This document shows positions 1-54,373 of a stretch of DNA of 64,000 bases, in pieces. The stretch's first letter is position 1. Each line of letters begins with the position of its first letter. The notes beneath the pieces were generated by a model. The model saw only the letters and a list, made by a program, of their open reading frames with translations, searched no databases and was not told where the DNA came from. Source of the stretch: Candidatus Babeliales bacterium (GTDB lineage Bacteria > Babelota > Babeliae > Babelales > JBFXEV01); assembly GCA_050179755.1 (NCBI GenBank), contig JBFXEV010000001.1, positions 1,461,296 to 1,525,295 on the forward strand, in the 5' to 3' direction. A program made the translations under genes and the position numbers.

Positions 1-338
1 ACATCTTTTACTTCAACCACGCGCGCCATTTCAGCAGTGCGATGCTTACGCAAACGACCCGCCGTTGCATTAAGATCTCTTTGGCTTGCAAATAAATATT
101 TGCTTATAACAATACCACCAACTACTGCTCCAATAACTAACGTTGATTTAGGGTGGTCCCATGCAGTTTCAACTACCATAAGACTAGCATCTTTAATTTT
201 AGCAAGTGCATAACGCGGATAAGAAACAACCGTTTTTGGCTCATTATCTAAGTCATCCATAGCACATGTCATTGCTGGCATGGCTACAAAAGATAATACA
301 ACGAACAATCTTAACATATATTTTTTCATAAATAACAT
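1..338 (-). CDS. Partial secreted hypothetical protein (runs off left edge)
   Basis: Translated by hand, not in the ORF track: MLFMKKYMLRLFVVLSFVAMPAMTCAMDDLDNEPK..., open to position 1; GGAGG at 346-350 upstream; signal-like N-terminus and an internal hydrophobic segment. Confidence 0.75.
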   Translation of the reverse strand, partial: MLFMKKYMLRLFVVLSFVAMPAMTCAMDDLDNEPKTVVSYPRYALAKIKDASLMVVETAWDHPKSTLVIGAVVGGIVISKYLFASQRDLNATAGRLRKHRTAEMARVVEVKD

Positions 339-383
339 TTTGAAACCTCCAATTACATTCCATTTAGTACTATTTTTAGAAAA

Positions 384-1109
384 TTAAATTTTAGTTTCTC
401 GCACTTGCATATCACTGGAATTTGAATGTATGTTATAATTCACCGATGATAGCATTGTATTTGCAAAACCATTTTTCTTTGGCTGCAACATTTCTTTTAT
501 GCGACTAATTCTTTCATCGCGAGCAAGAGATTGCTTTTTGTATGTTTCTATATTCGAATTAATTTCACGCATTTCTGCATCCATTAAACCAACTTTTTGA
601 TCAAGATCTATTGTCATTTCACCAAGACGCTGTATTTTTTCCATTAATGTCGCACGGGCAAAAGTTATTAGACCTAGCTCTAGCAACATTTCTTCTAATG
701 TTTTTTTGACTTTGGGCAATTCAGTTTCATGGTTTTGCTTAATTTCTTCCAACTGAGTCTTAAGTTTCCGTGTTTGCTCATTTAAACTTATTGCAGTGCC
801 TTGCATCAAAGTAGCATTTTCTGCAAGAGTATCTTGTCTTTTATTTATAGCAGTAAATTTAGCATTAATTTCTTGTTTACTTTGATTTTCACGCGCAATC
901 AAAGCATCAGCTGCCTGAGTCGTTTCTAATTTTTCTTTTTTTTCAAATTCAGCAAGTCCAGCTTTTGTGATAGGGCAAAATGACCAGAGGTAAGAAGCTG
1001 CAGAATATAAAGGAGCTGTAAACAAGCTAGACCAAGCCGCTTGAGCAGGTAACGCATAGCTCCCCGCAAAAAGCAGGGTAAATGCCAAAATATAATGATT
1101 AATTTTCAT
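384..1109 (-). CDS. Secreted coiled-coil hypothetical protein
   Basis: ORF 384..1139; likely start MKINHY at 1109 (AAGGA upstream); signal peptide ending AQA; heptad-rich E/K/Q/L body. Confidence 0.7.
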   Translation of the reverse strand: MKINHYILAFTLLFAGSYALPAQAAWSSLFTAPLYSAASYLWSFCPITKAGLAEFEKKEKLETTQAADALIARENQSKQEINAKFTAINKRQDTLAENATLMQGTAISLNEQTRKLKTQLEEIKQNHETELPKVKKTLEEMLLELGLITFARATLMEKIQRLGEMTIDLDQKVGLMDAEMREINSNIETYKKQSLARDERISRIKEMLQPKKNGFANTMLSSVNYNIHSNSSDMQVRETKI

Positions 1110-1147
1110 CTTGATATCCTTTGGGATAAGACCTTCCATTCGAATCT

Positions 1148-1176
1148 AGCATACCAGGAAAAATACAGTTAGTCAA
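1148..1176 (-). promoter_or_regulatory. Putative sigma70-type promoter
   Basis: Minus strand TTGACT-N17-TATGCT upstream of the 384..1109 gene. Confidence 0.5.
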
Positions 1177-1181
1177 ATCAA

Positions 1182-2306: not shown

Positions 2307-2412
2307 CGCTCATCCTGAGTAGTCCGTCGTGTATGAAGTGCATAATAAGTTTCTCGATAATAAATAGAGTATCGGTAAAAGGTCAAATGACGGATATATC
2401 GAAGGGTTGAGC
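2307..2412. repeat. Intergenic palindromic (REP-like) element
   Basis: CGCTCATCCTGAG...TCCGTC-(loop)-GACGGA...TCGAAGGG; same end motifs as the elements at 27256-27348 and 47837-47957. Confidence 0.65.
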
Positions 2413-2422
2413 ATTAATACCC

Positions 2423-2944: not shown

Positions 2945-3832
2945 ATGAAAACAATACTAATGTCGATCATAATTACCATATGTCTATTATTAAGTTCACT
3001 CAAAGCAATGGACGCAAAGCGACACGTACTAGTGCCACTGGACGGCTTTCTTTTTCAAGTAAATACCGCAGCAGCAATTTCAGAATTAGGTGTTGCAGGA
3101 GCAGTTTCAGCAGCATGGACGGCAGGATGGCGCAGCAGCTTTTCAAATATCTTAGGCGTAGCCAGTGGCAAAGGCCCCGATCAAAAAACGCTTGCTACTA
3201 AATTGTTTGCTTTATTAAACACTATTGAATATCAACCATGTGTAGAGGCAAAGAGCGCTCCTGAAGTCTGTTGGCAAGGCCTTAAAACCCCTCATATTGT
3301 GGTGCATGGCTATTTGCAAGGCAATAATAGATGCTCTGATCTAATGCAAACAGTACTCTCACATATACAAAAAAATGCTGGTAGTGGAGAGCGAGCAAGT
3401 CTTGAAGCCTCCGCAAGAATTATGCTCGATCCTACAAAAAATGCCGCTACATTCACTCCAAACGCTGATGCCTTAAACATAGTTAAAGAACTTAAGGCGC
3501 GAGGCCATACTGTTCATGTTGTTGATAATTGGAATGGTGAGACATTCGATTGCCTTCTAGAATCGCACAAAACTTTGTTTGAAACTATTAATGGCAAATT
3601 ATTCGTCTCTGGCAAAGAAGGCGCCGTAAAATCTACTAAAACTACTGCACTTCTTGAATCTTTTCTTGAAAAAAATAATGGCATTAAACCCGAGCACTGT
3701 TTTTGTATTGAAACAGAGCCAAGTTATATTGCTCCATTAGAAAGTAAAAGACTTAAGCATGCCCTCTGCCAAGACGGCAATATTGCTGCACTGCGTGCGA
3801 CATTGCAAAAGGTTGGGTTACTTGCAGAGTAA
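2945..3832 (+). CDS. Secreted HAD-like protein with degenerate motifs
   Basis: Signal peptide; HVLVPLDG (motif I-like), VHVVDNW, SGKEGAVK and PEHCFCIE resemble HAD motifs. Confidence 0.55.
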   Translation: MKTILMSIIITICLLLSSLKAMDAKRHVLVPLDGFLFQVNTAAAISELGVAGAVSAAWTAGWRSSFSNILGVASGKGPDQKTLATKLFALLNTIEYQPCVEAKSAPEVCWQGLKTPHIVVHGYLQGNNRCSDLMQTVLSHIQKNAGSGERASLEASARIMLDPTKNAATFTPNADALNIVKELKARGHTVHVVDNWNGETFDCLLESHKTLFETINGKLFVSGKEGAVKSTKTTALLESFLEKNNGIKPEHCFCIETEPSYIAPLESKRLKHALCQDGNIAALRATLQKVGLLAE

Positions 3833-7618: not shown

Positions 7619-8101
7619 CTAATTTCCACCACCACCATGACCATGCATCTCTTTTGTTTTCCACCAACCATATATAACCCCGCTATAAAAAATTGCTGCA
7701 ACACCAACTCCAACAAGCGCTAGTTTCCCCATACCTGCCATATTTTGATAAGTTCTTTTTCCTTGCTGCAGCAGAACACCTACAATAGAACCTTTTAAAT
7801 CTAATTGTTCAGCTGGTAAAGCAGCCCCAGTACTTATAAGCAAACGCCTAAAATCTTTTACATTAACGTTAAAATTACCATCCTCGCGAGGTGTAATTAC
7901 TTCCGGCAATGATTTTGCAAAACTTTGTATTGCATTTCGTTGCATAGAAGGTGAACCTGCATCAGCTAATGTATCAACTAACTGTATTGATTCTGGTCTT
8001 GCTGCAGCAAATATTACTAAATCTAATTTCTTCCCCGGTTCCATTGCCCCTACTAAAAAACTATATCCACAAACAACAATAGCTAATATATATTTTTTCA
8101 T
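7619..8101 (-). CDS. Secreted hypothetical protein with C-terminal TM segment
   Basis: MKKYILAIVVCGYSFLVGA|MEP signal; hydrophobic LALVGVGVAAIFYSGVIYGWW near the C-terminus (ORF to 8116). Confidence 0.7.
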   Translation of the reverse strand: MKKYILAIVVCGYSFLVGAMEPGKKLDLVIFAAARPESIQLVDTLADAGSPSMQRNAIQSFAKSLPEVITPREDGNFNVNVKDFRRLLISTGAALPAEQLDLKGSIVGVLLQQGKRTYQNMAGMGKLALVGVGVAAIFYSGVIYGWWKTKEMHGHGGGGN

Positions 8102-8225
8102 AAATTCCCTTTCCATGATTAAATTCTTTGCTTAGATGATACGCCTTATTGACCTACTAAAGCAAGAAAATTAAAAAATATGATATACTTTTAAGAAAAT
8201 TACGATATCACCATATTGGAGATGA

Positions 8226-9402: not shown

Positions 9403-9414
9403 TGCCAGACCTTC

Positions 9415-10095: not shown

Positions 10096-10169
10096 TCAAC
10101 TCACCATCTACCGCGATACATTTTTTCGTTACTCGAAAAAATACGCAATAGGAACAGTAAGTAATTAAT

Positions 10170-13328: not shown

Positions 13329-14297
13329 TTATTGATGCTTAAGCGCACCCGTAATAAATTGAGCTCGCCAATCATATTCTGCAGACAAAACAGGATTATT
13401 TGCTTTCAATGTAGCTTGGTGTTTATTATAGGAAACAAGAAACTTCTTAGCAACTTCAGGTTCTGCAGCTATCACTTCTTGCTCTGCTGACGTATCAAGC
13501 TGCCTCCAAAATGGCCTTGTAACAATACTATGCATAATGCCGCGTAATTGATCGCCAATTATTGAGGAAAGCGTCAGAGATCCTGCAAATTTTAACAACC
13601 CTGGAATGCATACTGCAGAGCACGCGCTAGCCAGCGCAGGAGCTGCATTACAGACTGCTTGCGTAACACCAAGAGATTGATCTTGCTGTGCTGCAAAATC
13701 AGTCACGTGTGCCATTGTTTTATGCACGATCACGGCAAGTACTGCGCCAACAATAAGCTTTGATGCTACTTTTGTGCGGTACGTTCCATTATTAAAATGA
13801 GTAATCGCTCGTTTAAGAATATACTTTTTAATAGTACGTACTGGATCCGCAACATACCGCCCTTGTTCTTGAGCTATATTTTCAAAGTGCGCACGCATTT
13901 CTGGCGTATTCAATGTAAGCCATTCAGCTTCATCAATAAAAATACAAGAGTTGGTTATAAGCACCGACGTGGCATTGCCTGAAACTTGAGGGTTTAATTT
14001 TAAAATATAGATTGAACTATCTTCAAAATTAAGTTCTTTCAAGAGAGACTTAACTTCTTGATACACAGGATTTGAAAGTTGTGCAAATTCATAGCCAGTG
14101 CCATCTTGTTTTGCAATACCATATTTTGCCATTTGATGCCGTACTGAAAGCAAACTTGGTATATAGGCAATATCAAAAGGAATATAATCTGAATAGCCAC
14201 GATGCGCTTCATGTATGGGCGTATATCCTTGTTGATCCATGGCAGCAAGCGGCGCGCTTGCGCCAATTAATGCTAAAAATAATACTATTCTTTTCAT
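13329..14297 (-). CDS. Secreted hypothetical protein, paralog of 14312..15190
   Basis: Signal MKRIVLFLALIGASAPLAA|MDQ; SVRHQMAKYGI and IFIDEAEWLTL match the neighbour. Confidence 0.7.
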   Translation of the reverse strand: MKRIVLFLALIGASAPLAAMDQQGYTPIHEAHRGYSDYIPFDIAYIPSLLSVRHQMAKYGIAKQDGTGYEFAQLSNPVYQEVKSLLKELNFEDSSIYILKLNPQVSGNATSVLITNSCIFIDEAEWLTLNTPEMRAHFENIAQEQGRYVADPVRTIKKYILKRAITHFNNGTYRTKVASKLIVGAVLAVIVHKTMAHVTDFAAQQDQSLGVTQAVCNAAPALASACSAVCIPGLLKFAGSLTLSSIIGDQLRGIMHSIVTRPFWRQLDTSAEQEVIAAEPEVAKKFLVSYNKHQATLKANNPVLSAEYDWRAQFITGALKHQ

Positions 14298-14311
14298 AAG
14301 ATTCTCCATTT

Positions 14312-15190
14312 TTATTCAATAACTTCAGTTTCACTGGAATGATCGCCTTCATCACTTTCTGTATCAGATAAATGCGATAAACTTATTTTTTCTAATGCTT
14401 TTGCACGTGCTTGCTCGGCCAAATAACGCGCTACCGGTGCAGTAATAACCGCATTCACCAAAGGTCCCACGCCCGGCGTAAGCAATGACGACCAGGCAGT
14501 TTTGCCAGCCATTATACACAACGACGGCGAATAAAATTGATCACATGTTTGATTAGCTGTTGTTGCAATACCTGTTGAAATGGTTTCAAGCCATGCAGTT
14601 CCTGGCACCGATTCTGCCATCCACGAGCATAATGATGGTGCAAGCGTGTAGCTTACAATACCAATCACCGTGCTTACTAAGATGCCATCAACCACCATTT
14701 TGACGGCCAACTTCTTGCGATATTGACCTTGTGCATACTGCTCAACCATAAGAGCACTAAAAAATTTTTTAATTTCTAAAGCATTTTCATGCGTTTTAAG
14801 AGAAAGCCACCATGCTTGATCTATAAAAATACCACCGTTGGTTACTATAAATCCTGGTGCTTCTTGCGCTTTTTCTTTATCTAATTGCAGCATAAAAATA
14901 TCTGCAGGATCAAGATCCGCTTCTTTAAGGAGTGGCGCTATTTCTGCGTATACTGCAGGGTCAAGTTCTAAATAACCTTCGGTAGCAGTAGGTATGCCGT
15001 AGGCTGCAAGTTGCTGCTTTACCGAGAAAAATTCAGGCAAGCCATAAAGATACCCTGCAATTTGCTTGGGAATACGATCAAAAATGCTTGATTTCACCTG
15101 TAAGGCAGGGATAGATACCCGCTCATTCTCCATCCCATAAAGAGGAGAAATAGCCAAAACTAGGAATAAGATTGAAAATAATCGTTTCAT
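14312..15190 (-). CDS. Secreted hypothetical protein, paralog of 13329..14297
   Basis: Signal ...SPLYG|MEN; SVKQQLAAYGI and IFIDQAWWLSL; GGAGG RBS. Confidence 0.72.
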   Translation of the reverse strand: MKRLFSILFLVLAISPLYGMENERVSIPALQVKSSIFDRIPKQIAGYLYGLPEFFSVKQQLAAYGIPTATEGYLELDPAVYAEIAPLLKEADLDPADIFMLQLDKEKAQEAPGFIVTNGGIFIDQAWWLSLKTHENALEIKKFFSALMVEQYAQGQYRKKLAVKMVVDGILVSTVIGIVSYTLAPSLCSWMAESVPGTAWLETISTGIATTANQTCDQFYSPSLCIMAGKTAWSSLLTPGVGPLVNAVITAPVARYLAEQARAKALEKISLSHLSDTESDEGDHSSETEVIE

Positions 15191-18200: not shown

Positions 18201-20771
18201 GCGCGGAACATCCACCGCGTTAAGCACTATTGCTCGCATGCAATTGGGGTGATCTAACTGAGCACCTTTTTCTAAAGCTGCCTCGGATTCTTCTTCTCGA
18301 TCTTCATATAATAGGTATCTACTTAAATAAAAATACGCGCTTGAAAGCGTTGCTTTACATAATCTCTGTAAATCCGCCAACTCTTTATGTGCGCAAGAAA
18401 GATCATATGCTTGTTGCGCATACTGTACAGCTGTTTGCAAATGTGCTTCTTGCGTATCAGTTTGATCAGAAAGTAATTTGCACGGCGTGAGAACATGCAC
18501 CATATGAATCATACATTTAATAAAAGCAAGTTGTGTTTGTGCCCGTAGTGAATAATCAGCTCCATTCAACGAGAAAATACGAGTAAGAGTCGTAGGCTCT
18601 TTAAATACACTTAAAATACGCTCCCACGTTGCAATTGGTTCAGTATCATAATCAAATTTTAAACATTCAATACAGAGCGTAGTAGTTAAGTGCAGTGCTC
18701 GCTGATACCCTTGAATTGAACTCGAAGAGCTCAGAAACAAACGCGCACCCCAATTAATCGCTCTTATGTCGCCTGCTCCTGTTGCCAAACCCATACCATA
18801 CTCAACAAATCTTATTAAAAGATCTCTTTCTTGCACTGGTAGCGATAGAGATTCAAGCTCTATAAATTTATCAACAGCCTCAGTATATTTTTTTTGGTCG
18901 ATAAAACTCAGAATCCCGCGATAAAGCACCAGCGCCTTGCAAAAAGGCTCAGCCTCTTTAATACCGCCTTTAAAAGCTAACATTGCATTTTTGAATGACT
19001 GTTCCAATAAATCACGTTGCGCCACGGGAATATTTTGTTGCTCTTGGCCTGTATAGGCTAAACGAAACAACAACCTGCTCAAAAGATATTTTGCTTTGGG
19101 ATCATTTTGTTGCGTACTTAATTTTGTGAGTGCATCCGATATGCACTGACATTTGTCTTTTTGAGTAAATACATCTGCGGATGCTTCCAAAAATCGAGTT
19201 GCAATTTCGCAACAATACGCTGCAGTTTCTGCGGTTAGCGCATCGCCATCTTTTTTAATACGCTCTTGAACGTTCCATATGCAAGCATCTAATTGGCCAT
19301 CCCGCGCAAGATGTTCCAGCAAGTCTTTTGCTCGCTCACCAATCAAACGCTCCACATAAGATTCCTGCCGATTAGCAACCAGAAGCTCACCGCATTTTTT
19401 GATAACCAATGCCAAATTGCCCTGATGATAACTATCAATAATATCCGCAAAACTACTGATTGCTTGCATCAGTTCTTTTTCTATACACGTTTGCGTATTA
19501 CCCGTTTGCGCACATTTTTTAAGGTCTTCAAAAGCCATTTTGGCATCGGGCGCTAGTAAAAAGCTGGTCATTCGTCGCAGTAATTCAATGCTTGTCAGAT
19601 GCGCCCAAATACAGCAGGCAAGTGTATTATTATTTTTAACCATGCCTGCAACAAGATCTTGAATCCCAAATTCAGCGAACGCATGCTTTACCGCATCTGT
19701 TTCTGAAGCTCGTTGTTCATGGAGAATAGCAACAATAGCTTGCAAACCTTTTGTTCTCTCTCTCTTATCACTATTTTTTAAATCCTGTGCTACCAAATAA
19801 GCACGCGCTCTTAACGCGCCATTCTGACCAATTCGTTCAAGTACCGCATGAGCAAGTTGTTTTACCTGCACAAGAGAATTATCTTGCGAGCTTTGAGTAA
19901 GTAATCCTAAAAGATTTGTTATTGTTTCTTGATCATAGGTTCTTTTACATGCTTCAACACCCTGCATGTAAACAGAAACGGCTTCAACCAGGGGTCTAAA
20001 CTCCGGATGCACGTCAAGAGCCGTAAAATATTTTTGACATCGCTCAAATTGAGCACTTTGACTATCGAGCGTTTTTTCAAGGACTGCTCGCTTGCACGCT
20101 TCTTGAAGCAGGCGATATTGCGCATCAACAGAACCTTCTTGGGCCAACTGTTCCAGTAAAGGCATATAATGTACATCCACAAGCATCGTACGCTCTAAAT
20201 GCGCTAAATCTTTAAAGGAGGGATAATAGGAAACCAGTTTTTGCAAAGCTTGTAATTGATCATAGGCAAGACAATGTTGACCTTCAAGCATAAATCGAGC
20301 AAATGAAGCTGCATGTTCATAAGGGACTTCATGTGGCTTATACAACACCGCACGTTCTGTGGCTTTAAAAAATTCAATTGCTTCTTCTTTATTGCCATCT
20401 TCCATCGCCAATGCACCAAGCGCATACAGTGATCGCGCATCACGATACAAACTTTTGCGTGTAATGACTTTACCATCTTTAATATCTTGCCGCAGCAATG
20501 CAACTGGCTTTGCAAGTTCTTCTAATGCACCATTAACATCTTCACCTAAAAATGCAGACTTAAACTTTACTTCATGCAGTGCATCAAGATAACTTGTGCC
20601 GCTATGCATGCCATATTTTGGAAAAGGTCGCTGAACATTAGTAGTAAGTTGTGGCAAAACCCTATAAAACGCATCACGGTGCTGCACCGTAGCGTCTGTT
20701 TGCTGATCCATACCAAAACTATTATTACATAGTACCAAGAGAAGTGTTAAATACCAAGATGTGTTGTTCAT
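15288..20771 (-). CDS. Giant secreted Sel1-like/TPR helical-repeat protein (1827 aa)
   Basis: Signal-like N-terminus; repeated SLR-like helices (AQEGSVDAQYRL, AAQGSAQAQFLLS, AKNGHIAAMQALG); collinear paralog of 21964..27459. Confidence 0.7.
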   Translation of the reverse strand: MNNTSWYLTLLLVLCNNSFGMDQQTDATVQHRDAFYRVLPQLTTNVQRPFPKYGMHSGTSYLDALHEVKFKSAFLGEDVNGALEELAKPVALLRQDIKDGKVITRKSLYRDARSLYALGALAMEDGNKEEAIEFFKATERAVLYKPHEVPYEHAASFARFMLEGQHCLAYDQLQALQKLVSYYPSFKDLAHLERTMLVDVHYMPLLEQLAQEGSVDAQYRLLQEACKRAVLEKTLDSQSAQFERCQKYFTALDVHPEFRPLVEAVSVYMQGVEACKRTYDQETITNLLGLLTQSSQDNSLVQVKQLAHAVLERIGQNGALRARAYLVAQDLKNSDKRERTKGLQAIVAILHEQRASETDAVKHAFAEFGIQDLVAGMVKNNNTLACCIWAHLTSIELLRRMTSFLLAPDAKMAFEDLKKCAQTGNTQTCIEKELMQAISSFADIIDSYHQGNLALVIKKCGELLVANRQESYVERLIGERAKDLLEHLARDGQLDACIWNVQERIKKDGDALTAETAAYCCEIATRFLEASADVFTQKDKCQCISDALTKLSTQQNDPKAKYLLSRLLFRLAYTGQEQQNIPVAQRDLLEQSFKNAMLAFKGGIKEAEPFCKALVLYRGILSFIDQKKYTEAVDKFIELESLSLPVQERDLLIRFVEYGMGLATGAGDIRAINWGARLFLSSSSSIQGYQRALHLTTTLCIECLKFDYDTEPIATWERILSVFKEPTTLTRIFSLNGADYSLRAQTQLAFIKCMIHMVHVLTPCKLLSDQTDTQEAHLQTAVQYAQQAYDLSCAHKELADLQRLCKATLSSAYFYLSRYLLYEDREEESEAALEKGAQLDHPNCMRAIVLNAVDVPRKLKPMSKQEFEAHMKRLLRAYNMGDSYAGVILAQHYFDGSERTFACGYSLGQDRKTAYYLAQKLKEFKETKRILAQEELDKASNDRAHEEMHVRNAVTLLQEAVSAGCEESCAQLARLIDSPLCSSAQVEEIYEFIKQKAKVKLPSALRALGTLHARYPESTAQAIECFKEAIELSDGKHGVYELLEIFCKTPEVHLCGNNLFFAADLCLLLVHDITHLENIESHGLPFVLQVLPLLDLVDADADYKTEAATHYDELVVALRTLGIVASTEVVKKEEETEEMKKWRVLNGGEFQNEQGACVTFRTLVKEPTLATEEFLKNLCLIDVVFEDMASEKAQAICKDALLMRTLDAAAAQGSAQAQFLLSKMLSYEAEHDKALQADRESKRRHLQQALKCSGEAATSEPEQARHVAQFERNFESLFLFDQTIYIPYVQGNREALAVVFHELQPTLEHTNAGTIPGINSDKLRSLALQSVRILAFNGCVPALDNFVEKNLLSKNKKEMNDALEAIIRCMSFHELTLSDLQASGFYDVITKHIEYIKRLADTTNNGRAACIMMLWCSAHYGGADASNEDLAAVMSYGDKAKDSGYSTGIYHWWKDRLYCNAQMSDQMFSAALKALEGIAEQEAAAGELLLRLYGGSTLPCGKEVIPDRKRSKKLALSLKDRSTCALKRLVSFAREDGDFKKAIAYKFELIQRTHNASDDLYLELSQLCAGGYMYPDDLILFLEHKAKNGHIAAMQALGGLKAVQKKYDEAIKLFDRVIADGGRLSALAHLEMAFVHISKDSNVLKALEHIERGIEATVAKQFSKDIAIGTVQTFGMRLIKFMLDCLLTQKLEQREQANKVFEQLIDCMKQHNFYQSHSVEWRLMIATMHCINGSDYPLLLQHYEPLFLLLTNVKNMKSYCGFIGNAISLVVSRLHEDAQACKTTNPQRSHDIIKAVSKITHSLQKANIQYYMVVPEATFQKSITGAK

Positions 20772-20803
20772 GTAATTCTTTTAAATAAAATGTTGAAAAT
20801 ATA

Positions 20804-27459: not shown

Positions 27460-27467
27460 AGTATCCT

Positions 27468-33825: not shown

Positions 33826-33933
33826 AAGTTCCTTGAGTGTTATACTATACTTATTACATTGCTACCTAGCGTAGCAGAAATGGCGCAAAGCCGCTACTAG
33901 AAGCACATGGAGCAATACCAAAGGAGTATAGCT

Positions 33934-37602: not shown

Positions 37603-37793
37603 AGTCGCTCCTTATCGCTTATTGCAAATAAGTTATACTACATTTACATTAAAAAGCAAAAAAACATAAAGTATGATACATGAGACGCAAATTTTTAATA
37701 TCCATTGTTTGACAGCCTGAAAAAAGATATTCAAAATATAGGTGAATGCTCATCTAGAAGCATATATCATACTACTGTTGATTGGAAACTCTT

Positions 37794-38354
37794 ATGCTTA
37801 CACACTCTATTACGTTACTGATTTTAATTCTGTCATCAGTGAATATGTCCTTAAAGGCAATGGAAACGACTCCAGGGACTGGTAAATTAATTTTACAAAG
37901 TGGTAACTATCAAACGACTCTGAAAGCTAATGCTTTTAAACCCAATTATTTAATTATTCCAAAAGTCACTTCTAGTATTACTGAAGAAGATGGCTATAAG
38001 AGCAGTGTCGTACAAACCATTACAACCTTGCAAATAACACAAGTTAGTCATGCTAACGCTGATAATCCAACTGATATAACATCAAATTTCAGTGAATTTC
38101 CTGTACTTGATATTGGTCCTCTTGAAACTGTCATAAAAGCCGAATTATACAAAAAGTGGGAGGCACAAAAGAAACTTGATGATCATGCGGCTAAAGTTGC
38201 ACAAGGACAAGCCATTCATGCTGCACGAAAAGAAGATAGTGAAAAACTATCAATAACACAACGCAATCCCAAAACAACTATTTTTGTTTCTCTTGCACTT
38301 GGTGCGAGTCTAACATTGTTGTTGTCTCAATGGATTAATAAAGCAGAACTATGA
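37794..38354 (+). CDS. Secreted hypothetical protein with C-terminal hydrophobic segment
   Basis: Signal ...MSLKA|MET; C-terminal IFVSLALGASLTLLL. Confidence 0.65.
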   Translation: MLTHSITLLILILSSVNMSLKAMETTPGTGKLILQSGNYQTTLKANAFKPNYLIIPKVTSSITEEDGYKSSVVQTITTLQITQVSHANADNPTDITSNFSEFPVLDIGPLETVIKAELYKKWEAQKKLDDHAAKVAQGQAIHAARKEDSEKLSITQRNPKTTIFVSLALGASLTLLLSQWINKAEL

Positions 38355-39506
38355 CACTGCTTTAATAACTTCTTGCAAACTCACCAAGCCCATTGAAACT
38401 TTATGCATGCCATCGCTCACCATGGGGCGCATGCCATCTTTACATGCTTGATCATATAACGTATCACGTATGGCACGTTGCATTAAAAGCTCCCGCATGG
38501 CATTAGACATTTCAAGTAATTCAAAAATACCGGTTCGCCCTTTATGCCCTAAGCCATGGCACTCTTTGCAGCCAACGCCACGATACAGCATATCGCACGA
38601 AAGATGTAATTTTTCAAGCATGCGGTGCTCATGAGTATCGGGAGCATAACTTTCTTTGCAGTGCTCACAAATTTTTCTTACTAATCGTTGTGCCATAATC
38701 CCGCTCACGGCAGCATTGAGTAAAAACGGTTCAATACCCATATCAACAAGGCGCGTGAGCGCGCCAGGTGCATGAGCAGTATGCAATGTGCTAAACATCA
38801 TATGTCCTGCAAGCGCTGCTTCAATTGCCACTTGCGCAGTTTGTGCATCACGAATTTCACCCACCATAACAATATCAGGGTCTTGGCGTAAAATAGCACG
38901 CACGCCTTTTTCAAACGTAAACCCGGCCTCGGGGTGAATATTTCCTTGCACTAAACCTTCAATTTGATATTCAACCGGATCCTCAAGTGTTACAATATGT
39001 TGTTCAGTATTATTGAGTGTTGCAAGCGCTGCATATAACGTGCTTGTTTTGCCAGAGCCTGTAGGGCCAGTTACCAGAATGAAACCACTGGCGCGTTGAA
39101 TAAGATCGTTAAATTTTTCAAATAATTGTGGCGACATGCCAAGTTGATCAAATGTATGAAACTGATTATTGCGCTGAAGTAACCGCAAGACCACTTTTTC
39201 GCCTTCTATAGAAGGGAATGTAGAAACACGCACATCAAGAGGCGGATGACCTGCCACTTGTATGGTAAATTTGCCATCTTGAGGAATTCGTTTTTGCGCA
39301 ATGTTAATATGGGCTAAAATTTTAAGACGAGTGATCAAAGAATCTGCAAGATTTTCGGGAATATAGGTATGATGATATAAAAGCCCATCAATGCGAAATC
39401 GCACGCGCAGTCCACGAGCATCTGGCTCAATATGAATGTCTGACGCGTTTTTCTCAAGTGCTTGTGCAATAATGGTATCTACTAATGTGACTGCCGAATG
39501 ACTCAT
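38349..39506 (-). CDS. GspE/PilB-family assembly ATPase (no N-terminal domain)
   Basis: ASDIHIEP, RIPQDG, GPTGSGKT, TLEDPVE, LRQDPDIVMVGEIRD, STLHT, CxxC pairs (CEHC, CKEC). Confidence 0.92.
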   Translation of the reverse strand: MSHSAVTLVDTIIAQALEKNASDIHIEPDARGLRVRFRIDGLLYHHTYIPENLADSLITRLKILAHINIAQKRIPQDGKFTIQVAGHPPLDVRVSTFPSIEGEKVVLRLLQRNNQFHTFDQLGMSPQLFEKFNDLIQRASGFILVTGPTGSGKTSTLYAALATLNNTEQHIVTLEDPVEYQIEGLVQGNIHPEAGFTFEKGVRAILRQDPDIVMVGEIRDAQTAQVAIEAALAGHMMFSTLHTAHAPGALTRLVDMGIEPFLLNAAVSGIMAQRLVRKICEHCKESYAPDTHEHRMLEKLHLSCDMLYRGVGCKECHGLGHKGRTGIFELLEMSNAMRELLMQRAIRDTLYDQACKDGMRPMVSDGMHKVSMGLVSLQEVIKAVS

Positions 39507-39565
39507 GAGCTATTCTCCTACTTACACCTAAGTAGTAGCATAATCATGAAATGAAAAAAAAGAGT

Positions 39566-40126
39566 TTATGAGTTTTCATCTTTATTTGTTTTATAGAAGT
39601 TAGGCTCTTGTTCATGTTCCTGGCCATATTCCTCTTCGGGAGTTTCTTCCGGTTCATTAGGATCACGAACATCTGCAGGCGATTTATCATAAAACTCTGA
39701 TATTGCATCGGTAATATCTTGGTCAAGGCCAACATTAAACACAATATCATAAGAAACATACTCACCAATGCGCGGTAGCAACTCAGGATCTTGCGGATTA
39801 CCTGCAATCATAAGCATAATATTATCATCATGCTCAAGAGGAATAATCACATTTCTGTGCAAGAAATCTTTAGGGAACATATGCAAAGCTTGATGATCAA
39901 AAAAATGACCTAATACGTCAAATGATGGCACATTATAATAGGTGCTTAATGCATTTAATAAATCAGTACGAGAAACAAGGCCTTCATCAAGCAAAAATTG
40001 ATCAAAATTTGCTTTGCCACTTTCTTTAAACCCTTTTACAAGAGCTTGTGCTTCATCTTCTTTAATAACATTATGCAACATAAGGATTCGTGTTAATCCT
40101 TCTACAAATGTTTCTCCTTGTTTCAT
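39566..40126 (-). CDS. Stand-alone GspE/PilB N-terminal (MshEN/T2SSE_N-like) domain protein
   Basis: FLLDEGLVSRTDLLNALS...YNVP...FPKDFLHRNVIIPL...IAGNP; directly upstream of the ATPase; acidic tail. Confidence 0.68.
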   Translation of the reverse strand: MKQGETFVEGLTRILMLHNVIKEDEAQALVKGFKESGKANFDQFLLDEGLVSRTDLLNALSTYYNVPSFDVLGHFFDHQALHMFPKDFLHRNVIIPLEHDDNIMLMIAGNPQDPELLPRIGEYVSYDIVFNVGLDQDITDAISEFYDKSPADVRDPNEPEETPEEEYGQEHEQEPNFYKTNKDENS

Positions 40127-45421: not shown

Positions 45422-46282
45422 CTATAAGGTTTGAAAAAACCGTGACCAACGTACTCTTTTCCAAAAATCAATGGGGTGTTTAATGAAATCCCAAAACCAC
45501 CATGATTCATAACTATCGAGAGACCATAGGCGAAAGATTATTTTTCCATGTATAAATGACGCATCAAGCGGTCCGTAAAAACGAGAATCGGCACTTCCTA
45601 ATCTATTATCACCCATTACCCAATATTGCGTAGGCCCTAAATATACATCAAATTCATCTACTAATCGCTCTCCTATGCGTGCTTGCACAGGCGTTCCTGG
45701 CAATAAAATATTTGGTTTACCAATATGAGCAAATTTTTGTTTTGCATGTTGCACATCATTGGGATTCATGTGATAGAATGGTTGATCTTCAAATGAAACT
45801 TTTGGATCATATGAACGCATACAATAACGATCACTATCAATACTGCTTGCCGCAGTATAAACTGCAATAAGTGGGTAGGGATTTATATATGGCTCATTCA
45901 ATTTTTCACCATTTAAATAAATTACCGGACTGCCATCTTCAATAATACCTTGCACATGATCACCAGGCTTTCCGATAACACGTTTTGTCCAATTACTCGG
46001 GCCCCATACATAATGCTCAAACAAACGTATTACTGGGTTATTAGAATAGGTATGCTGCCAAGCATCATTAAATGTTATAATATCACCGCGCTCTGGGCCA
46101 TAAAACCACATTGTCAATTTCTCAGCCAGAAATCGATCGCCAACAAGCATAGTTTTTTCCATGGAACCGGTTGGCACTTGATATAAGCCAAACAAAAAAG
46201 TTCGCACAAAAAAAATGAGCGGTACAAAAATAATAAGTGTTTTTATTAATTCATATATTTTATTTTTTAAATTTAGTAACAA
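45422..46282 (-). CDS. lepB: Signal peptidase I
   Basis: VPTGSM (Ser), TKRVIGKPGD (Lys), MGDNRLGSADSR. Confidence 0.93.
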   Translation of the reverse strand: MLLNLKNKIYELIKTLIIFVPLIFFVRTFLFGLYQVPTGSMEKTMLVGDRFLAEKLTMWFYGPERGDIITFNDAWQHTYSNNPVIRLFEHYVWGPSNWTKRVIGKPGDHVQGIIEDGSPVIYLNGEKLNEPYINPYPLIAVYTAASSIDSDRYCMRSYDPKVSFEDQPFYHMNPNDVQHAKQKFAHIGKPNILLPGTPVQARIGERLVDEFDVYLGPTQYWVMGDNRLGSADSRFYGPLDASFIHGKIIFRLWSLDSYESWWFWDFIKHPIDFWKRVRWSRFFQTL

Positions 46283-47114: not shown

Positions 47115-47990
47115 TCACACAAGCTGCACATCATTGCCCAGCAACCAACCGGTGACACTACCATCGGTAACAAGATACCAAGTATCATGAATTGCACGAA
47201 TCTCAACTTCTTGGCCTCTTTGCAAGGCGGCCTTCACTCGTGCTTGAGAATTTTTATTTACGAATACCGCTGTATCACGCAGAACAAAACCCATTAAGCG
47301 ATTTTGCTCTGTATAGCGTACCATCAAAAGGGCTGCTACCACAAGTAGCAAAACGGACCAAGCCATAATAAATATCCAATTGCGCCGCTTATACCAGGTA
47401 ACTAAGAATAGTCCCAACGCAAGCACCACAAAAAATACTAGTTGCCAAATTTTGAAAGGAATAAAACGCATATATAAATCAATACGTTTAAGAAAAGCGT
47501 ATACTCTTGTTTCATGGAAAACTCCGCCATGCTCTTGCTGCACGCTAGCAACACGCTCTTGAAGCATAGTATAATCACGCAATGTAACAAAACGCTGCGC
47601 ACGGCGCCAATTCACTAACGCTTCAGGAAATAATCCAAGCGCATATGCTGCATTACCTTTATTAATAAGTAGCTCTGGATTACGCGTTGAAATACTTTTA
47701 TATAACTCATATGCTTTTTTAATATCACCTTGTTCATATAATTTATTTGCTTGCAGGTATCGTTCTTGAGCAGGAGGTTCACCAAATAACGATCCAATAA
47801 AAACAATAGAAATAAATAGCACTATCAGCTCATAGACCCTTCGATTCATTCTACTTAGCTGAAGCTTGGTAGAACACTCCCAGCTTACGCATAAAGTCCG
47901 CTCATCCTGAGCGAGCATAGCGAGTTGAAGGACGGCGGGCGCGGCAGGGTGAGCGGGATATATTCTTCTTACCATAAACCAGTTCATCAT
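47115..47990 (-). CDS. batE: BatE-like TPR/SH3 membrane protein
   Basis: TPR (ANKLYEQGD..., NKGNAAY), two TM segments, SH3-like C-terminus (WYLV...GW); start uncertain because of the repeat insertion. Confidence 0.7.
   Translation of the reverse strand: MMNWFMVRRIYPAHPAAPAVLQLAMLAQDERTLCVSWECSTKLQLSRMNRRVYELIVLFISIVFIGSLFGEPPAQERYLQANKLYEQGDIKKAYELYKSISTRNPELLINKGNAAYALGLFPEALVNWRRAQRFVTLRDYTMLQERVASVQQEHGGVFHETRVYAFLKRIDLYMRFIPFKIWQLVFFVVLALGLFLVTWYKRRNWIFIMAWSVLLLVVAALLMVRYTEQNRLMGFVLRDTAVFVNKNSQARVKAALQRGQEVEIRAIHDTWYLVTDGSVTGWLLGNDVQLV
47837..47957 (-). repeat. Nested palindromic element in the 5' end of the batE ORF
   Basis: CCCGCTCACCCTG...CCCGCCGTCCTTCAA...CTCAGGATGAGCGG..TTTATGCG..GCTGGGAG...TCGAAGGG; homologous to 27256-27348. 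Confidence 0.8.
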
Positions 47991-49729
47991 AACGTTTTCT
48001 CAAATAGTGCAAGCCATCGTTCAGCTTGATTAAAAATATCGGCAGGTGGAATTTGCGCCGCATCAAAAAAAGCATATGTCTGTAAAGTAGTACTATACTG
48101 TTGCCATTGTCTAACCGTATCTTCTGGAATGTGTGTTTCTTTTAACCAAACTTGCATATCAGAATCCAACACTTGCGAAGATGCAATACCACGGCGATCA
48201 GCAAATAAATCAATAAAAATACTATAAAGCTCACGTGCATTGCGTTCCCGCCGTGCCATAATTAATCTTTTTTGCGCTCTATGAAATGATGCTCGCGAAC
48301 GCAAATAATTTTGATTACGTAGTTTATAATTACGCCACCAATATAATCCCCATTGCATTGCAATGCCTAACAGTATCAATAAAATAACCATCCAGAATAC
48401 AAAATCAGAAAAACCAGTATCCACGCGAAACTCGGCAGATCCTTGCGCATAAAGCGGAAATAGTGCTGCGGGCACAGCATTATTAAGTTGTGCTGGTTGG
48501 TCTACACGTGCAGCTGGTTTTTGAGCTCCGTTTGCAGCATTGTCAGACATAATAGTAAGCGTAATCGGTTCTGATGTTAACTCTTTAAATTGCTTATCGT
48601 GTGGATCATAAAAGGTAAATGTTTGGGCAGGAATTGTAAGCGTGCCGGGCTCGCGTGATTGTATAATATACTCAAAACTTTTACGCTGCGTGCTCACCAA
48701 TTGATTTTTATTCTGTGCTAACGTGCTTTTTGAATCATATGAGGTCAGCGAGGGTGGCAACTTAAGTGCTGGATGAGCAAGTTCCTTAAGAGCAGCATTA
48801 CCATCAAGTGCCAACGTATAGACTATGCCCTCACCCTGTTTTGCCGTTGTTTGATTAACCGATGCTTCAAGTTGTGTAAATGTGCCTACCGCATTAACTT
48901 CGCCTTTGTGTAACGGCAAGTCGGTTACTTTAAGCTTTACTGCATTTGAATCAGTTTCATATTGTTGCATGCCAAACGCAAAATGATCCGATAATAATTG
49001 AAAAATATGCGTGCGTTCTCGCGCTTTCATAGTATAAACGGCATGCGCAGGACCTATAGTAAACGTGCCTACTTCTTTTGCAAGCATATCTCCTTGCCAT
49101 TCAATATACTCGTAGAGTGCACCCTCAATCTCCTGTGATCCTCGTGTGGGTCCAACTAATGGGCTTACCAAAAAGCCTTCAATTTTTGGCGGTTCAATTG
49201 AAGAAAGCTGAGATAAACCCAGATGATAAAATCGAAGCGTAAGAGCAATTGTTTGCCCAACAACTATTTGCTCTTCTGGCATGCGTAATTCAAGCCATGG
49301 TTCTGTGCGAGTAACTCGCTCTACTGGCTCTTGCTCCACTTTTATTTGCACAGCATTAGAAGAATACAAATCACCATTAATGGTAACTGTTGCAGGGCCA
49401 AGCGTAAAAGTTCCTACTTCTTTCGCTCGAACAACATATTGAAAACTTGTTTGCTGCGACGTAACGCCATTAATTGAATTCATGCTCGTTGTAGTGCCTT
49501 GATTGCGCACATCAAATACCGATGGAGATTCAAGAAACACTTTACCTGCTGAAGTATTTGTATTAATTGTGACCGTGGCAATAAAAGGCTTGTTAAGCGC
49601 CGCTTCATGAAGAGGCAGTCCTTGCCCAGTTTTTATACTTAATTGTACTGACACAGGATCTTGACCAAACACATAATAACTAGTCAAACAGCATGCTATT
49701 AAAAATATAAGGTTACCAATTTTTTTCAC
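47987..49729 (-). CDS. batD: BatD-like protein
   Basis: Signal peptide, repeated beta-sandwich motifs (GTFTLGPA, GTFTIGPA, GTLTIPA), AVGTF, C-terminal TM; position in the Bat cluster. Confidence 0.8.
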   Translation of the reverse strand: MKKIGNLIFLIACCLTSYYVFGQDPVSVQLSIKTGQGLPLHEAALNKPFIATVTINTNTSAGKVFLESPSVFDVRNQGTTTSMNSINGVTSQQTSFQYVVRAKEVGTFTLGPATVTINGDLYSSNAVQIKVEQEPVERVTRTEPWLELRMPEEQIVVGQTIALTLRFYHLGLSQLSSIEPPKIEGFLVSPLVGPTRGSQEIEGALYEYIEWQGDMLAKEVGTFTIGPAHAVYTMKARERTHIFQLLSDHFAFGMQQYETDSNAVKLKVTDLPLHKGEVNAVGTFTQLEASVNQTTAKQGEGIVYTLALDGNAALKELAHPALKLPPSLTSYDSKSTLAQNKNQLVSTQRKSFEYIIQSREPGTLTIPAQTFTFYDPHDKQFKELTSEPITLTIMSDNAANGAQKPAARVDQPAQLNNAVPAALFPLYAQGSAEFRVDTGFSDFVFWMVILLILLGIAMQWGLYWWRNYKLRNQNYLRSRASFHRAQKRLIMARRERNARELYSIFIDLFADRRGIASSQVLDSDMQVWLKETHIPEDTVRQWQQYSTTLQTYAFFDAAQIPPADIFNQAERWLALFEKTL

Positions 49730-51919: not shown

Positions 51920-52893
51920 ACAAACGTACGAACAAAAAGCTCAATAAAGCATAGTGCAAGCAAAAGCCATATAAAAGGAAACAACAAATCATGATATTTG
52001 GTAAATATGGTGGCTTCTACATCAGTCTTTTCAAGTTGATCAATAGTTTCATATACGCGTGCCATATCTTCTGGCTTTTGTGCTTGAAAAAATGCGCCAC
52101 CCGTTTTTTGGGCAATCATGGTAAGCAATCGTTTGTTAATTGCTGAACCAAATTTACCGATACCAAATCGCGGATCTTGCACAAAACCACCATCTTCTGA
52201 ACCAATACCTACCGTATATACTTTAATGCCAAGCTTATTGGCAATCGCAACTGCTTCTTCTGGATCTGTATCATATCCTGGTGTAGGTTCACCATCAGTT
52301 AATAAAATAATAATTTTACTCTTTGCCTTAGAACTGCGCAAACGATTTGCCGCAGTAATAAGGGCCACGGAAAGAGCAGTACCACTTGCATCAATAGTGT
52401 CAATTTTTAAATCATTAATAATATTTTTAAGCATCTTTTTATCGAGCGTAAGTGGGCAACGAGACACTGCATATGCGCCAAAAATAACAAGCCCCATAGG
52501 ATCATGCTGACGTTTATCCACAAATTTAATTGCTTCTTCTTTGGCAACTTCTATGCGAGATCTTTGATCTTGCAAGTCATCAAATAATCGCATGCTACCA
52601 GAAACATCCAATACTATCATGATATCAATCCCCTCAACAGTTACTTGCGAATTGGTATCAACCAACTGCGGGCGCGCAATTAAGAATAAACACCCTGCAA
52701 GTACTGCACTGCGCAGAAAAAAAAGCACAGGCCGTGCATATGACTGAGATACACCGCATTCTTTCAGAAAACCAGCTAAGGGAAATTGATAGGTACTTGG
52801 CTTATACCACAGCTTTCGATACATAATAGCTAGAATAAGCACGGGAATGCCTATATAGAACGCATTGAGATTACCAAACAAAAATGATTCCAT
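51898..52893 (-). CDS. batA: BatA-like VWA protein
   Basis: IARPQ, GIDIMIVLDVSGSM, PLTLD, LLTDGE, IDQLEK. Confidence 0.87.
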   Translation of the reverse strand: MESFLFGNLNAFYIGIPVLILAIMYRKLWYKPSTYQFPLAGFLKECGVSQSYARPVLFFLRSAVLAGCLFLIARPQLVDTNSQVTVEGIDIMIVLDVSGSMRLFDDLQDQRSRIEVAKEEAIKFVDKRQHDPMGLVIFGAYAVSRCPLTLDKKMLKNIINDLKIDTIDASGTALSVALITAANRLRSSKAKSKIIILLTDGEPTPGYDTDPEEAVAIANKLGIKVYTVGIGSEDGGFVQDPRFGIGKFGSAINKRLLTMIAQKTGGAFFQAQKPEDMARVYETIDQLEKTDVEATIFTKYHDLLFPFIWLLLALCFIELFVRTFVWSGVSA

Positions 52894-52896
52894 ATC

Positions 52897-53622
52897 TTAT
52901 TGTGCCGTTTGTTCAAGAAACCATTGATATATTTGTTCCATAAATTGATCGCGTGTTTGCCCTTCTTGCATGCGCATAGGTTTTCCTACGCGTATCGTAA
53001 TTGGATACTGCCGCACTAAAAAGCTACCGATCGGGTATGCTTTGTCAAGACCATGCAAATAAACAGGCACCACTTGCAAGTTGGTAGCTTGCGCAATAAC
53101 TGAAACCCCAGGGAAAAATCGTTGCAAGTTGCCATCAACGGCTCTGCCTCCTTCAGGAAATAATATCAAGTGCCGCCCCGTTCCTTTTACAAGCCGAATG
53201 CCATTTTTTAAAGAAGACATCATTGTTTGCGGGCTTGCCAAATCTACCACCACATTCATACGGCGCGCGATAAATCCAAAAACAGGAATATCTGCAAATC
53301 GTTTTAAAAATAACCATGCATGAGGATGAAATCCTAGCAAAGAACCTACCATGGGAATATCAAGCGACGAAAGATGGTTTGGTGCAAAAATTACCGGCCC
53401 ATCAGGAATATTCTCCAGCCCTTGATACGTAATGGGCAGCATAGTTGCCCAGCACACGCCTTTAAAAAAGAGCGCTACAAAGAAAAAATAAATAGGATTA
53501 TCACGGCGCCATCGCTCTGGCAAACAAGCAATTAATAAACAAGGTGGAAAACAAATAACTGCCAAAATACCTACAATAAAATACCCAAACAGCGTGCGTA
53601 TAACATCAAAAAAAAGATTCAT
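52897..53622 (-). CDS. plsC: 1-acyl-sn-glycerol-3-phosphate acyltransferase
   Basis: NHLSSLD and FPEGGR motifs. Confidence 0.87.
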   Translation of the reverse strand: MNLFFDVIRTLFGYFIVGILAVICFPPCLLIACLPERWRRDNPIYFFFVALFFKGVCWATMLPITYQGLENIPDGPVIFAPNHLSSLDIPMVGSLLGFHPHAWLFLKRFADIPVFGFIARRMNVVVDLASPQTMMSSLKNGIRLVKGTGRHLILFPEGGRAVDGNLQRFFPGVSVIAQATNLQVVPVYLHGLDKAYPIGSFLVRQYPITIRVGKPMRMQEGQTRDQFMEQIYQWFLEQTAQ

Positions 53623-53704
53623 GCATTTTCCCTAAATTACTAATACCTCGGTAGTACTTGGAAGTACTCTACTAGTATACTGTAAACAATGAGAAAATTA
53701 AAAA

Positions 53705-54373
53705 TCAGGTATTTTTCTTACGCACAAGACAAGCAAAACAACGATTGGCTCTCTCTGCTAGTGCAGGAACTTGTCTTAAACGGACTTGAGATTGTTGAAA
53801 TTGAAAATCGATATCTTTTGCAACCGACGCAGGCTCGGCTTTAGGCAAAATTACCGGAACTTGCGCATATTCTTTAAGCCACTGTAAATCAAGGTTAATT
53901 AATGCAGTAATTCTTATTATACGATTATTATACATATGTTGCGCTTCTTCACTTTCCATATCCTGTAAATCAACACACGTGGCAAAACGCCAAAGCTTTT
54001 CAAGCATTGCTTGGCATGCTCGTATGCTAGGATGACTACTTGTTACAAACGCTGTACCTTCATTATCAATTCTTTCTGCCAATTGAAACATTTGGTCAAT
54101 CCAAGAACTAGCAGTTTCTAGAGGAATGCATACATTAAGCTCACGTAACATTAATTCGTTACCCTTAAGCTCCATACCATGCATCACCGCACGCATAACT
54201 TCTTTACATGCAATCAATTGATCTTGATGCACAATAATATCAACTGTCTTGGCCGTTATAGAAATACCGCCAAGTACGTTGCTATAATCCTCAGGAAGCG
54301 CAACTACAGACTCCATAGCTGATAACGGTAGTATCACGCTTAATCCGCCAAACAGCACACACAAGCGCAACAT
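53705..54373 (-). CDS. Secreted hypothetical protein
   Basis: Signal ...LPLSA|MES; AAGGAG RBS. Confidence 0.65.
   Translation of the reverse strand: MLRLCVLFGGLSVILPLSAMESVVALPEDYSNVLGGISITAKTVDIIVHQDQLIACKEVMRAVMHGMELKGNELMLRELNVCIPLETASSWIDQMFQLAERIDNEGTAFVTSSHPSIRACQAMLEKLWRFATCVDLQDMESEEAQHMYNNRIIRITALINLDLQWLKEYAQVPVILPKAEPASVAKDIDFQFQQSQVRLRQVPALAERANRCFACLVRKKNT

Follow-up and report, generated by a model that had tools for sequence, protein, structure and literature searches.

A methionine-acidic motif directly after the predicted signal peptidase I site in a Babeliales genome: a class-restricted and lineage-specific +1 preference

Introduction

In the Bacteroidetes, most substrates of signal peptidase I (SPI) carry a glutamine at the first mature position (+1), and this glutamine is cyclised to pyroglutamate; the so-called Q-rule is phylum-wide and its modifying enzyme is known (PMC5837995, PMC10653852). 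In this study, we describe a preference of the same kind, in which methionine stands in the place of glutamine and is most often followed by an acidic residue. It was noticed in the final 64 kb of the 1,525,295-bp single-contig genome of Candidatus Babeliales bacterium, a member of the Babeliales/Dependentiae that parasitises protists (this whole stretch of 64,000 nucleotides is hereafter called the window; G+C 39.1%). As with the Q-rule, a strongly preferred residue is found directly after the predicted SPI site, genome-wide, in a lineage-specific manner and with related lineages lacking it. The two differ in that the residue is here Met with an acidic +2 (Met at 150 and Gln at 44 of the 588 predicted +1 positions), in that one substrate class is concerned, namely orphans and proteins with eukaryotic-like repeats, and not most SPI substrates, and in that the distribution is patchy within one order and not phylum-wide. 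Lineage-specific +1 rules, known until now only as the Q-rule, are not unique to the Bacteroidetes.

In usual signal-peptide logos, Ala dominates the +1 position together with other residues that are small or polar, Met being seldom found there. Another system that invites comparison is the Plasmodium export element (PEXEL), RxLxE/Q/D, which is cut after Leu by plasmepsin V and whose new acetylated xE/Q/D N-terminus directs export. By analogy, both may be cases of a parasite that marks its host-directed proteins by a processing step exposing a defined acidic or amide N-terminus. The organism, the protease, the motif and the compartment are however different, and the acetylation and the dedicated translocon belong to PEXEL, while here we deal with sequence alone.

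How Dependentiae tell their host-directed proteins from their envelope proteins is the question that such a tag addresses, given the extraordinary share of their proteome that is exported by Sec. According to the relevant passages, signal peptides are found in 44% of the Dependentiae coding sequences and in 78% of the ankyrin proteins (PMC6561590), and in a cultured relative (Babela) type II secretion (T2SS) is the sole secretion system found, with signal peptides in 79 of the 126 ankyrin proteins (PMC4378268). Those same passages on cultured Dependentiae mention neither a cleavage-site motif nor methionine, and literature searches, supplements being outside their scope, found no description of the motif. 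What we present is a strong and apparently unpublished +1 rule of SPI substrates, restricted to one protein class and to certain lineages.

A Methionine in Sharp Register with the Predicted Site

The initial annotation of the window had listed ten junctions at which a small residue is followed by Met, in mostly unrelated proteins and with Asp or Glu next in eight. All ten are present in the sequence (Table 2) and 8 of the 10 have the acidic +2; BLASTP among the ten proteins connects just two paralogue pairs, 13329-14309 with 14312-15190 and 15288-20771 with 21964-27459. The positions that had been quoted are those of the gene starts, not of the Met codons. BatD (VFG↓QD, 49663) and a hydrolase (ARA↓AK, 34012) do have leaders without a +1 Met, as had been claimed. 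Read by eye, the ten tagged leaders all possess an n-region with K/R and a hydrophobic core free of charges, and all end in a small -1 residue; their +1 Met lies 19-27 residues past the nearest upstream Met start.

The motif is real, it stands far above chance, and it is much larger than the window suggested. Over the genome, 1503 non-overlapping open reading frames (ORFs) were called, and the 1405 of at least 80 amino acids were analysed, leaving out the 98 shorter ones and the ORFs that cross the borders of the 20-kb loci. Cleavage sites were predicted with a home-made heuristic, based on the h-region and on the -3/-1 rule and blind to the +1 residue, which over-calls (42% of the ORFs, membrane anchors included). 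The +1 methionines given above for its 588 sites compare with a background of 2.0% (binomial p ~1e-115). With a looser predictor (710 sites), Met is found 172 times at +1, 18 times at +2 and 14 times at -2, and the register is therefore sharp. The share of Met reaches 4.0% at residues 21-25, against 2.0% past residue 60, and the 1405 ORFs contain 190 instances of [AGSC]M[DENQ] whose Met falls within residues 16-35, while about 4 cases are found in each 5-residue bin past residue 60. In a refined classifier, the conditions are a leader with an uncharged 8-residue window of mean hydropathy >= 2.0, a small -1 residue, Met, and eight non-hydrophobic residues after it; 254 of the 1405 ORFs (18%) are tagged according to this definition.

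The residue that follows Met is also constrained. Among the 254 tagged ORFs, the +2 position is occupied by D (77), E (65), Q (23), K (21), N (11), H (10) and R (8), so that D/E account for 142 of 254, against 46 of the 193 non-Met sites. Small residues are scarce there (20 of 254, against 59 of the 193 non-Met sites and a background of 37.7%), and so are hydrophobic ones (19 of 254), a depletion to which the downstream-hydrophobicity filter of the classifier contributes. Seen from the other side, when a hydrophobic leader ends in a small residue followed by X-[DE], X is Met in 142 proteins, and Gln comes next with 21. At -1, the tagged leaders have A (128), G (41), S (39), C (32) and T (14), a spectrum that is partly imposed by the classifier and that the non-Met sites share; in an unrestricted tally, the -1 residue is small at 196 of 266 sites. 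The -3 position holds L/A/V/I/T/S, Tyr, Phe, Leu and His are frequent at -2, and the information content of the junction is limited to -3..+3. That small residues are strongly avoided at +2 agrees with a requirement for exposing and keeping precisely this Met: the constraint could serve either to avoid a second cleavage site (A-M-S↓) or to resist methionine aminopeptidase.

A Kozak-like nucleotide signal (GCN ATG GAN) is an unlikely source of this pattern: the other G-starting codons are rare at +2 (A6, G2 and V4, together 12 of 254) compared with D77 and E65. As a separate observation, synonymous codon usage is mildly shifted at the junction of the tagged genes, with GCC for 31 of the 128 Ala (12% genome-wide), GAC for 22 of the 77 Asp (18%) and GAG for 26 of the 65 Glu (23%).

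The tagged proteins fall into 171 BLAST clusters, of which 155 are singletons and the largest has 65 members, and their leaders together with 100 nt of upstream DNA form 236 clusters for the 254 genes, the largest having 6 members. The motif is therefore neither the mark of one expanded paralogue family nor that of a shared mobile signal-peptide cassette, and both possibilities are ruled out. The tagged genes are clustered on the chromosome, with 89 adjacent pairs against 45.5 +/- 5.5 after shuffling. A common upstream motif, such as that of a promoter or regulon, was not retained: the best k-mer has p = 5e-5, a value still uncorrected for the thousands of k-mers compared.

Leaders of the Ordinary Sec Type

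The tagged leaders have all the sequence characters of classical substrates of Sec and SPI: a charged n-region (K/R in 229 of 254), an h-region, small residues at -1 and -3, a typical length (median 22 amino acids, 17-37 between the 5th and 95th percentiles, where classical leaders have about 20-25) and SPI genes encoded in the same genome. What sets them apart from classical leaders is the frequency of Met at the predicted +1 position. The twin-arginine translocation (Tat) motif S/T-R-R-x-F/L-L/K is absent from the 254 leaders, 4 of which contain any RR, and a lipobox lies close to the site in 4 of 254, so that the class does not have the signals of lipoproteins, processed by signal peptidase II. 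It does not have those of type IV prepilins either, in which a short charged leader is cut at G↓F/M, the hydrophobic segment comes after the cut and Glu stands at +5: in the tagged proteins, the hydrophobic stretch lies ahead of the Met and the next 8 residues are polar; genuine N_methyl pilins are found elsewhere in the genome. The comparison supports the view that the tagged leaders are genuine Sec/SPI signals with Met at +1. We infer that these ordinary signal peptides would, with high probability, be cut by SPI between the small -1 residue and the conserved Met.

Two Peptidase_S26 genes score above the curated cut-off, one inside the window (Table 2) and one at G000:C1:1044179-1044904 (+), G000 being the genome under study. 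Both look intact and they are 61% identical. Several other Babeliales genomes give two or three signal peptidase matches, some of them in tandem.

The Tag Marks a Host-Directed-Looking Class of Proteins

In the window, none of the 10 tagged proteins has a Pfam family (E <= 1e-5), against 36 of the 46 remaining ORFs (Fisher p = 5e-6). This difference was followed over a larger part of the genome, by a Pfam scan of all 122 tagged proteins in the first 800 kb and the window and of 126 of the 232 untagged proteins with signal-peptide-like leaders, those of the first 400 kb and the window (the 106 in the 400-800 kb interval were left out). Among the 122 tagged proteins, 76 have no Pfam family, 33 have ankyrin, WD40, TPR or LRR repeats and 13 belong to some other family; the corresponding numbers among the 126 untagged ones are 55, 5 and 66 (Fisher p = 8e-13 for other families and 3e-7 for repeat proteins). 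The other families of the untagged set include Omp85, TamB, SurA-like proteins, FKBP, substrate-binding proteins, thioredoxins, M48, C11 and GH3, as well as about 20 glycan-building enzymes with glycosyltransferases among them, and 2 of the 5 untagged repeat proteins have a near-miss Met. The tag thus marks a fast-evolving, host-directed-looking class, and it is mostly missing from the proteins of the envelope and periplasm and from those that build glycans; the expected enrichment of Met-[DE] in orphan and eukaryotic-like-repeat proteins, with depletion in envelope and periplasmic enzymes, is borne out. A two-residue tag that splits classes within one genome is a cheap predictor of effector repertoires for an almost uncultured phylum.

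Several enzymes that are normally cytoplasmic have signal-peptide-like leaders without Met. They comprise a deoxynucleoside kinase, UDP-glucose dehydrogenases and numerous glycosyl- and methyltransferases, together with two GNAT acetyltransferases. Their loci are L076:16092-17315 (+), L084-L086 (G000 340-390 kb), L079:15642-16166 (+) and L085:18478-19104 (+).

Conservation of the Methionine

The +1 Met is under selection. In a genome of the same genus (G061, 400 kb sampled), 36 reciprocal-best pairs could be formed that are below 70% identity and whose tagged protein has a polar +2. The Met is kept in 25 of these 36 pairs, while the other Met of the same proteins are kept in 67 of 239 cases (p = 2e-6; overall identity 46%). 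The 25 of 36 is a lower bound, because in several of the 11 non-matching pairs the Met is merely shifted by one to three residues. The leaders themselves are 21-36% identical per position between the two genomes.

Distribution in the Babeliales and Candidate Partner Genes

The same pipeline was applied to samples of 88-400 kb from 13 other Babeliales genomes, which cover 13 families including that of the genome under study (Table 1). The motif is strong in 4 of the 13 sampled families and none was found in 5, with the proviso that the samples are small and that related genomes are not independent. G047 and G010, of similar G+C and lifestyle, serve as negative controls and have one tagged ORF in 91 and one in 109, respectively, and in G048 six leaders have a +1 Met, followed by Val or Gln. 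A single-gene TopA tree sets f7, f11, f12 and f13, which are all low, apart from the others, only 2 of its 10 inner branches being well supported. In G061, the topoisomerase I gene (G061:C1:1362432-1364660) consists of five matched pieces with in-frame TAA/TGA stops, which may be a broken gene or assembly errors.

Table 1. Frequency of a leader followed by M[DE] in the sampled Babeliales genomes
Genome	Family	Leader↓M[DE], cases per 100 ORFs
G061	f1	13.6
G067	f19	12.4
G000 (this genome)	f1	10.1
G005	f3	5.1
G001	f2	4.3
G019	f8	2.8
G043	f12	2.0
G007	f4	1.1
G040	f6	0.6
G048	f9	0
G047	f5	0
G010	f7	0
G041	f11	0
G045	f13	0

The motif had been proposed to be a lineage-specific sorting signal for an export route, possibly through the T2SS or type IV pilus (T4P) ATPase encoded nearby. 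Its lineage specificity is supported, and a link with the ATPase is no more than possible. Secretins are found in 14 of 14 Babeliales genomes, with or without the motif, so that this route does not in general require the tag, and their presence is rejected as a correlate of it. A dedicated second signal peptidase was not retained as its cause either: both copies look intact, with the identity given above, and the number of matches per relative does not track the motif (matches do not amount to gene copies, and the search covered neither G061 nor G067). Two exported GNATs were considered as writers of the tag and rejected, one being confined to the genus and the other occurring in f1, f3 and f12 while missing from f19 and f2.

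Two side observations concern the secretins. A tandem pair of large ones (about 740-1050 amino acids) is present in 14 of 14 Babeliales genomes. A third, smaller one (457-618 amino acids) was matched in six genomes where the motif is rare or missing (G007, G010, G019, G041, G043 and G045) and in none of the 5 motif-rich genomes, a pattern that is confounded by phylogeny and to which G040 and G047 are exceptions.

A Possible Address Label Read after Sec Export

The tag is probably an address or stability label. Since envelope proteins and glycan enzymes also pass through Sec but do not carry it, we read the tag as information that is used after Sec export. From this, we infer the following sequence of events. 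SPI would cut between the small residue and Met, and the exported protein would begin with Met-Asp/Glu, or less often with Met-Gln, Met-Asn, Met-Lys or Met-His. This free Met-acidic N-terminus would then be read as an address label, which would part the proteins leaving the periplasm, through a secretin/T2SS-T4P-like apparatus or through vesicles, from the periplasmic residents. This full mechanism is the reading that we prefer, if only tentatively. A more specific version, in which the free Met-Asp/Glu N-terminus would be a linear and transferable export or host-targeting signal, by which a parasite with T2SS only would choose, from its hundreds of Sec substrates, those that cross the outer membrane into the host, is possible though rather doubtful. 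If true, it would supply for the first time a simple sequence code by which a type II-like apparatus selects its substrates and, by analogy, a bacterial counterpart of the PEXEL logic.

A number of points weigh against reading the tag as an address. The T2SS recognises its known substrates in the folded state, and no linear signal is known from them. Some tagged proteins resemble periplasmic residents, namely an OmpH/Skp protein (CPA↓MAV), an S41 protease (AFG↓MFE), a thioredoxin (LVA↓MEK) and an M15 peptidase (LHC↓MDQ), and three ankyrin proteins have a signal peptide and no Met; judged by eye, 4 of the 13 that belong to other families are false positives of the classifier. Signal peptides and secretins also occur in the families that lack the motif, and export as such does not need the tag. 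Finally, no gene that tracks the motif was found among the signal peptidase matches, the two exported GNATs and the secretins. These last two points, and the failure to find a shared upstream motif, weigh on the host-side reading below as well.

A second possibility places the role of the tag on the host side. In the protist cytosol, Met-Asp/Glu would act as a native eukaryotic N-terminus, which would set the stability or the partner binding of an effector and not its export: the Met would be retained, the +2 residue being too large for methionine aminopeptidase, the N-terminus would be a NatB-type substrate, and the N-degrons formed by a bare Asp/Glu or by Met-hydrophobic would be avoided. 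The rules of N-degrons, of methionine aminopeptidase and of NatB, together with the precedent of listeriolysin O in Listeria, give this idea its background. Assuming cleavage at A↓M, 176 of the 254 tagged proteins would begin like eukaryotic NatB N-termini (Met followed by one of the D, E, Q and N counted above), to which the K, H and R cases can be added, and the scarcity of small and of hydrophobic residues at +2 points the same way, as does the nature of the tagged class, eukaryotic-like and orphan proteins. In addition, the two low-motif relatives that were tallied often have D/E at +1 itself (14 of 82 sites in G040 and 9 of 54 in G041), which would destabilise a protein in a eukaryotic cytosol. 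On the other hand, Ala, Ser, Thr and Gly at +1 are stabilising as well, so that a Met would not be needed; NatB works mostly during translation, on nascent host chains, whereas the proteins considered here would be imported bacterial ones; and delivery into the host cytosol is itself hypothetical. The mimicry of a host-like N-terminus had already been put forward in the initial annotation. The +2 spectrum does fit Met retention and a NatB-type N-terminus, but avoidance of a second signal peptidase site explains the depletion of small residues equally well, and the classifier filter adds to that of the hydrophobic ones. We regard this host-side role as somewhat unlikely, while giving it real weight. 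Be it through an address or through a host-like N-terminus, the tag offers a concrete and mutable handle, either on the choice of substrates after Sec or on the acquisition of a host-like N-terminus by a bacterium.

The tag may also carry no addressing information at all, and result from a processing rule, in which a +1 Met with an acidic +2 is preferred by the signal peptidase or peptidases of the lineage or shields the protein from aminopeptidases. The Q-rule is the precedent for such a lineage-specific +1 preference (PMC5837995, PMC10653852). The genome has two SPI paralogues, and the strength of the motif is graded across the families. The Q-rule, though, spans most SPI substrates, while the present motif is limited to one class within one genome, where the envelope proteins and about 20 glycan enzymes that are exported have their leaders removed with no Met at the site. 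Moreover, G001 has the motif with one signal peptidase match and G041 lacks it with two. No Met-modifying enzyme was identified, and Glu_cyclase_2 (PF05096) has no match in the genome, which is 96% complete, the animal-type cyclase family not having been searched. A pure processing rule is thus unlikely in our opinion.

More unlikely still is that the Met is a relic, that is, the old start codon of cytoplasmic or horizontally acquired genes that gained a 5' leader extension. Many of the tagged eukaryotic-like repeat proteins must indeed have acquired a leader, and the tagged genes sit in fast-evolving arrays, as their adjacent pairs show. The Met is however conserved 2.5 times better than the other Met while the leader diverges, the -3/-1 site adjoins it exactly, the preference for D/E at +2 is unlike that of real starts, and the leader-bearing glycan enzymes do not have it (1 of about 24 has a +1 Met).

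The least probable of these explanations, and one to which we give very little credence, is a dual or alternative start, in which a conserved in-frame ATG would give rise to a cytoplasmic product that lacks the leader and matches the mature exported protein exactly: Met alone can double as a start codon, a register of exactly +1 would make both products identical, and Shine-Dalgarno (SD) motifs are detectable at only 88 of the 196 upstream starts, so that SD-independent initiation exists in this genome, but a check for a ribosome binding site before the internal Met, which the initial annotation had called for, finds SD 4-mers in 9 of 196 cases, as in the background of internal Met (336 of 7206). 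GTG and TTG, which make up 264 of 1142 longest-ORF starts (ORFs >= 150 amino acids), are not enriched at the Met position (1 of 8 Val codons and 1 of 8 Leu codons). D/E come second in 10 of 180 SD-preceded N-termini of non-exported proteins, against 142 of 254 after the internal Met, and the five window genes that were compared with the public protein collection are all called there with the leader (5 of 5) and never from the internal Met (0 of 5). On these four grounds, the +1 Met is rejected as an internal start codon.

Features of the Window

The tagged leaders of the window, the presumed processing enzyme, the candidate export ATPase and the two contrast proteins are given in Table 2.

Table 2. 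Tagged leaders and related features of the window
Feature	Position	Strand	Junction	Remarks
Orphan, leader + Met-Asp	258..338	-	MTCA↓MDD	Met codon begins 260; gene exits the left end of the window, 280 aa in the genome; no Pfam
Orphan, 295 aa, leader + Met-Asp	2945..3013	+	SSLKA↓MDA	Met codon 3008-3010; no Pfam; public gene call has the leader; G061 orthologue ARA↓MDA
Orphan, 165 aa, leader + Met-Glu	8039..8116	-	FLVGA↓MEP	Met codon begins 8044; no Pfam; public call has the leader
Orphan, 326 aa, leader + Met-Asp	14235..14309	-	PLAA↓MDQ	Met codon begins 14240; G061 orthologue of 53% identity, QLSA↓MQ; public call has the leader
Orphan, 292 aa, leader + Met-Glu	15128..15190	-	SPLYG↓MEN	Met codon begins 15133; paralogue of the 326-aa orphan; G061 TLKG↓MDS; public call has the leader
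Orphan, 1827 aa, leader + Met-Asp	20706..20771	-	NNSFG↓MDQ	Met codon begins 20711; no Pfam; G061 TSFA↓MEL
Orphan, 1831 aa, leader + Met-Leu	27355..27459	-	SDVLA↓MLP	Met codon begins 27360; paralogue of the 1827-aa protein; atypical +2; missed by the refined classifier
Orphan, 1203 aa, leader + Met-Lys	30999..31079	-	LPVHG↓MKK	Met codon begins 31004; no Pfam
Alpha/beta hydrolase, contrast: signal peptide without Met	33907..34725	+	TQARA↓AKL	Pfam, sequence
Orphan, 190 aa, leader + Met-Glu	37782..37865	+	MSLKA↓MET	Met codon 37860-37862; no Pfam
T2SS/T4P-type ATPase core (T2SSE, 385 aa) and separate MshEN-domain ORF (186 aa)	38349..40126	-		Pfam; candidate outer-membrane export route of the initial annotation
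Signal peptidase I (Peptidase_S26), presumed processing enzyme	45422..46282	-		One of two genomic copies
BatD, contrast: signal peptide without Met	47987..49729	-	YYVFG↓QDP	Pfam, sequence
Orphan, 222 aa, leader + Met-Glu	54311..54373	-	LPLSA↓MES	Met codon begins 54316; no Pfam; public call has the leader

The T2SS/T4P ATPase appears to be split, its T2SSE core and the MshEN ORF being separated by a gap of 60 nt. The three giant tagged orphans (1827, 1831 and 1203 amino acids) occupy 15288-31079 (-), where they are interleaved with a cysteine desulfurase gene (20804-21967), and they lie directly upstream of sufD/sufB/sufC (31070-33825); the 1827- and 1831-amino-acid paralogues are 27% identical. 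Host-directed-looking genes are therefore found inside a row of Fe-S assembly genes. Elsewhere in the window, three tandem membrane proteins with VTT/DedA domains adjoin a pyridine nucleotide-disulphide oxidoreductase (8698-10880, -), and a translesion polymerase pair, UmuD-like (Peptidase_S24) and UmuC-like (IMS, IMS_C, DUF4113), is encoded at 41252-43008 (-) in this reduced parasite genome.

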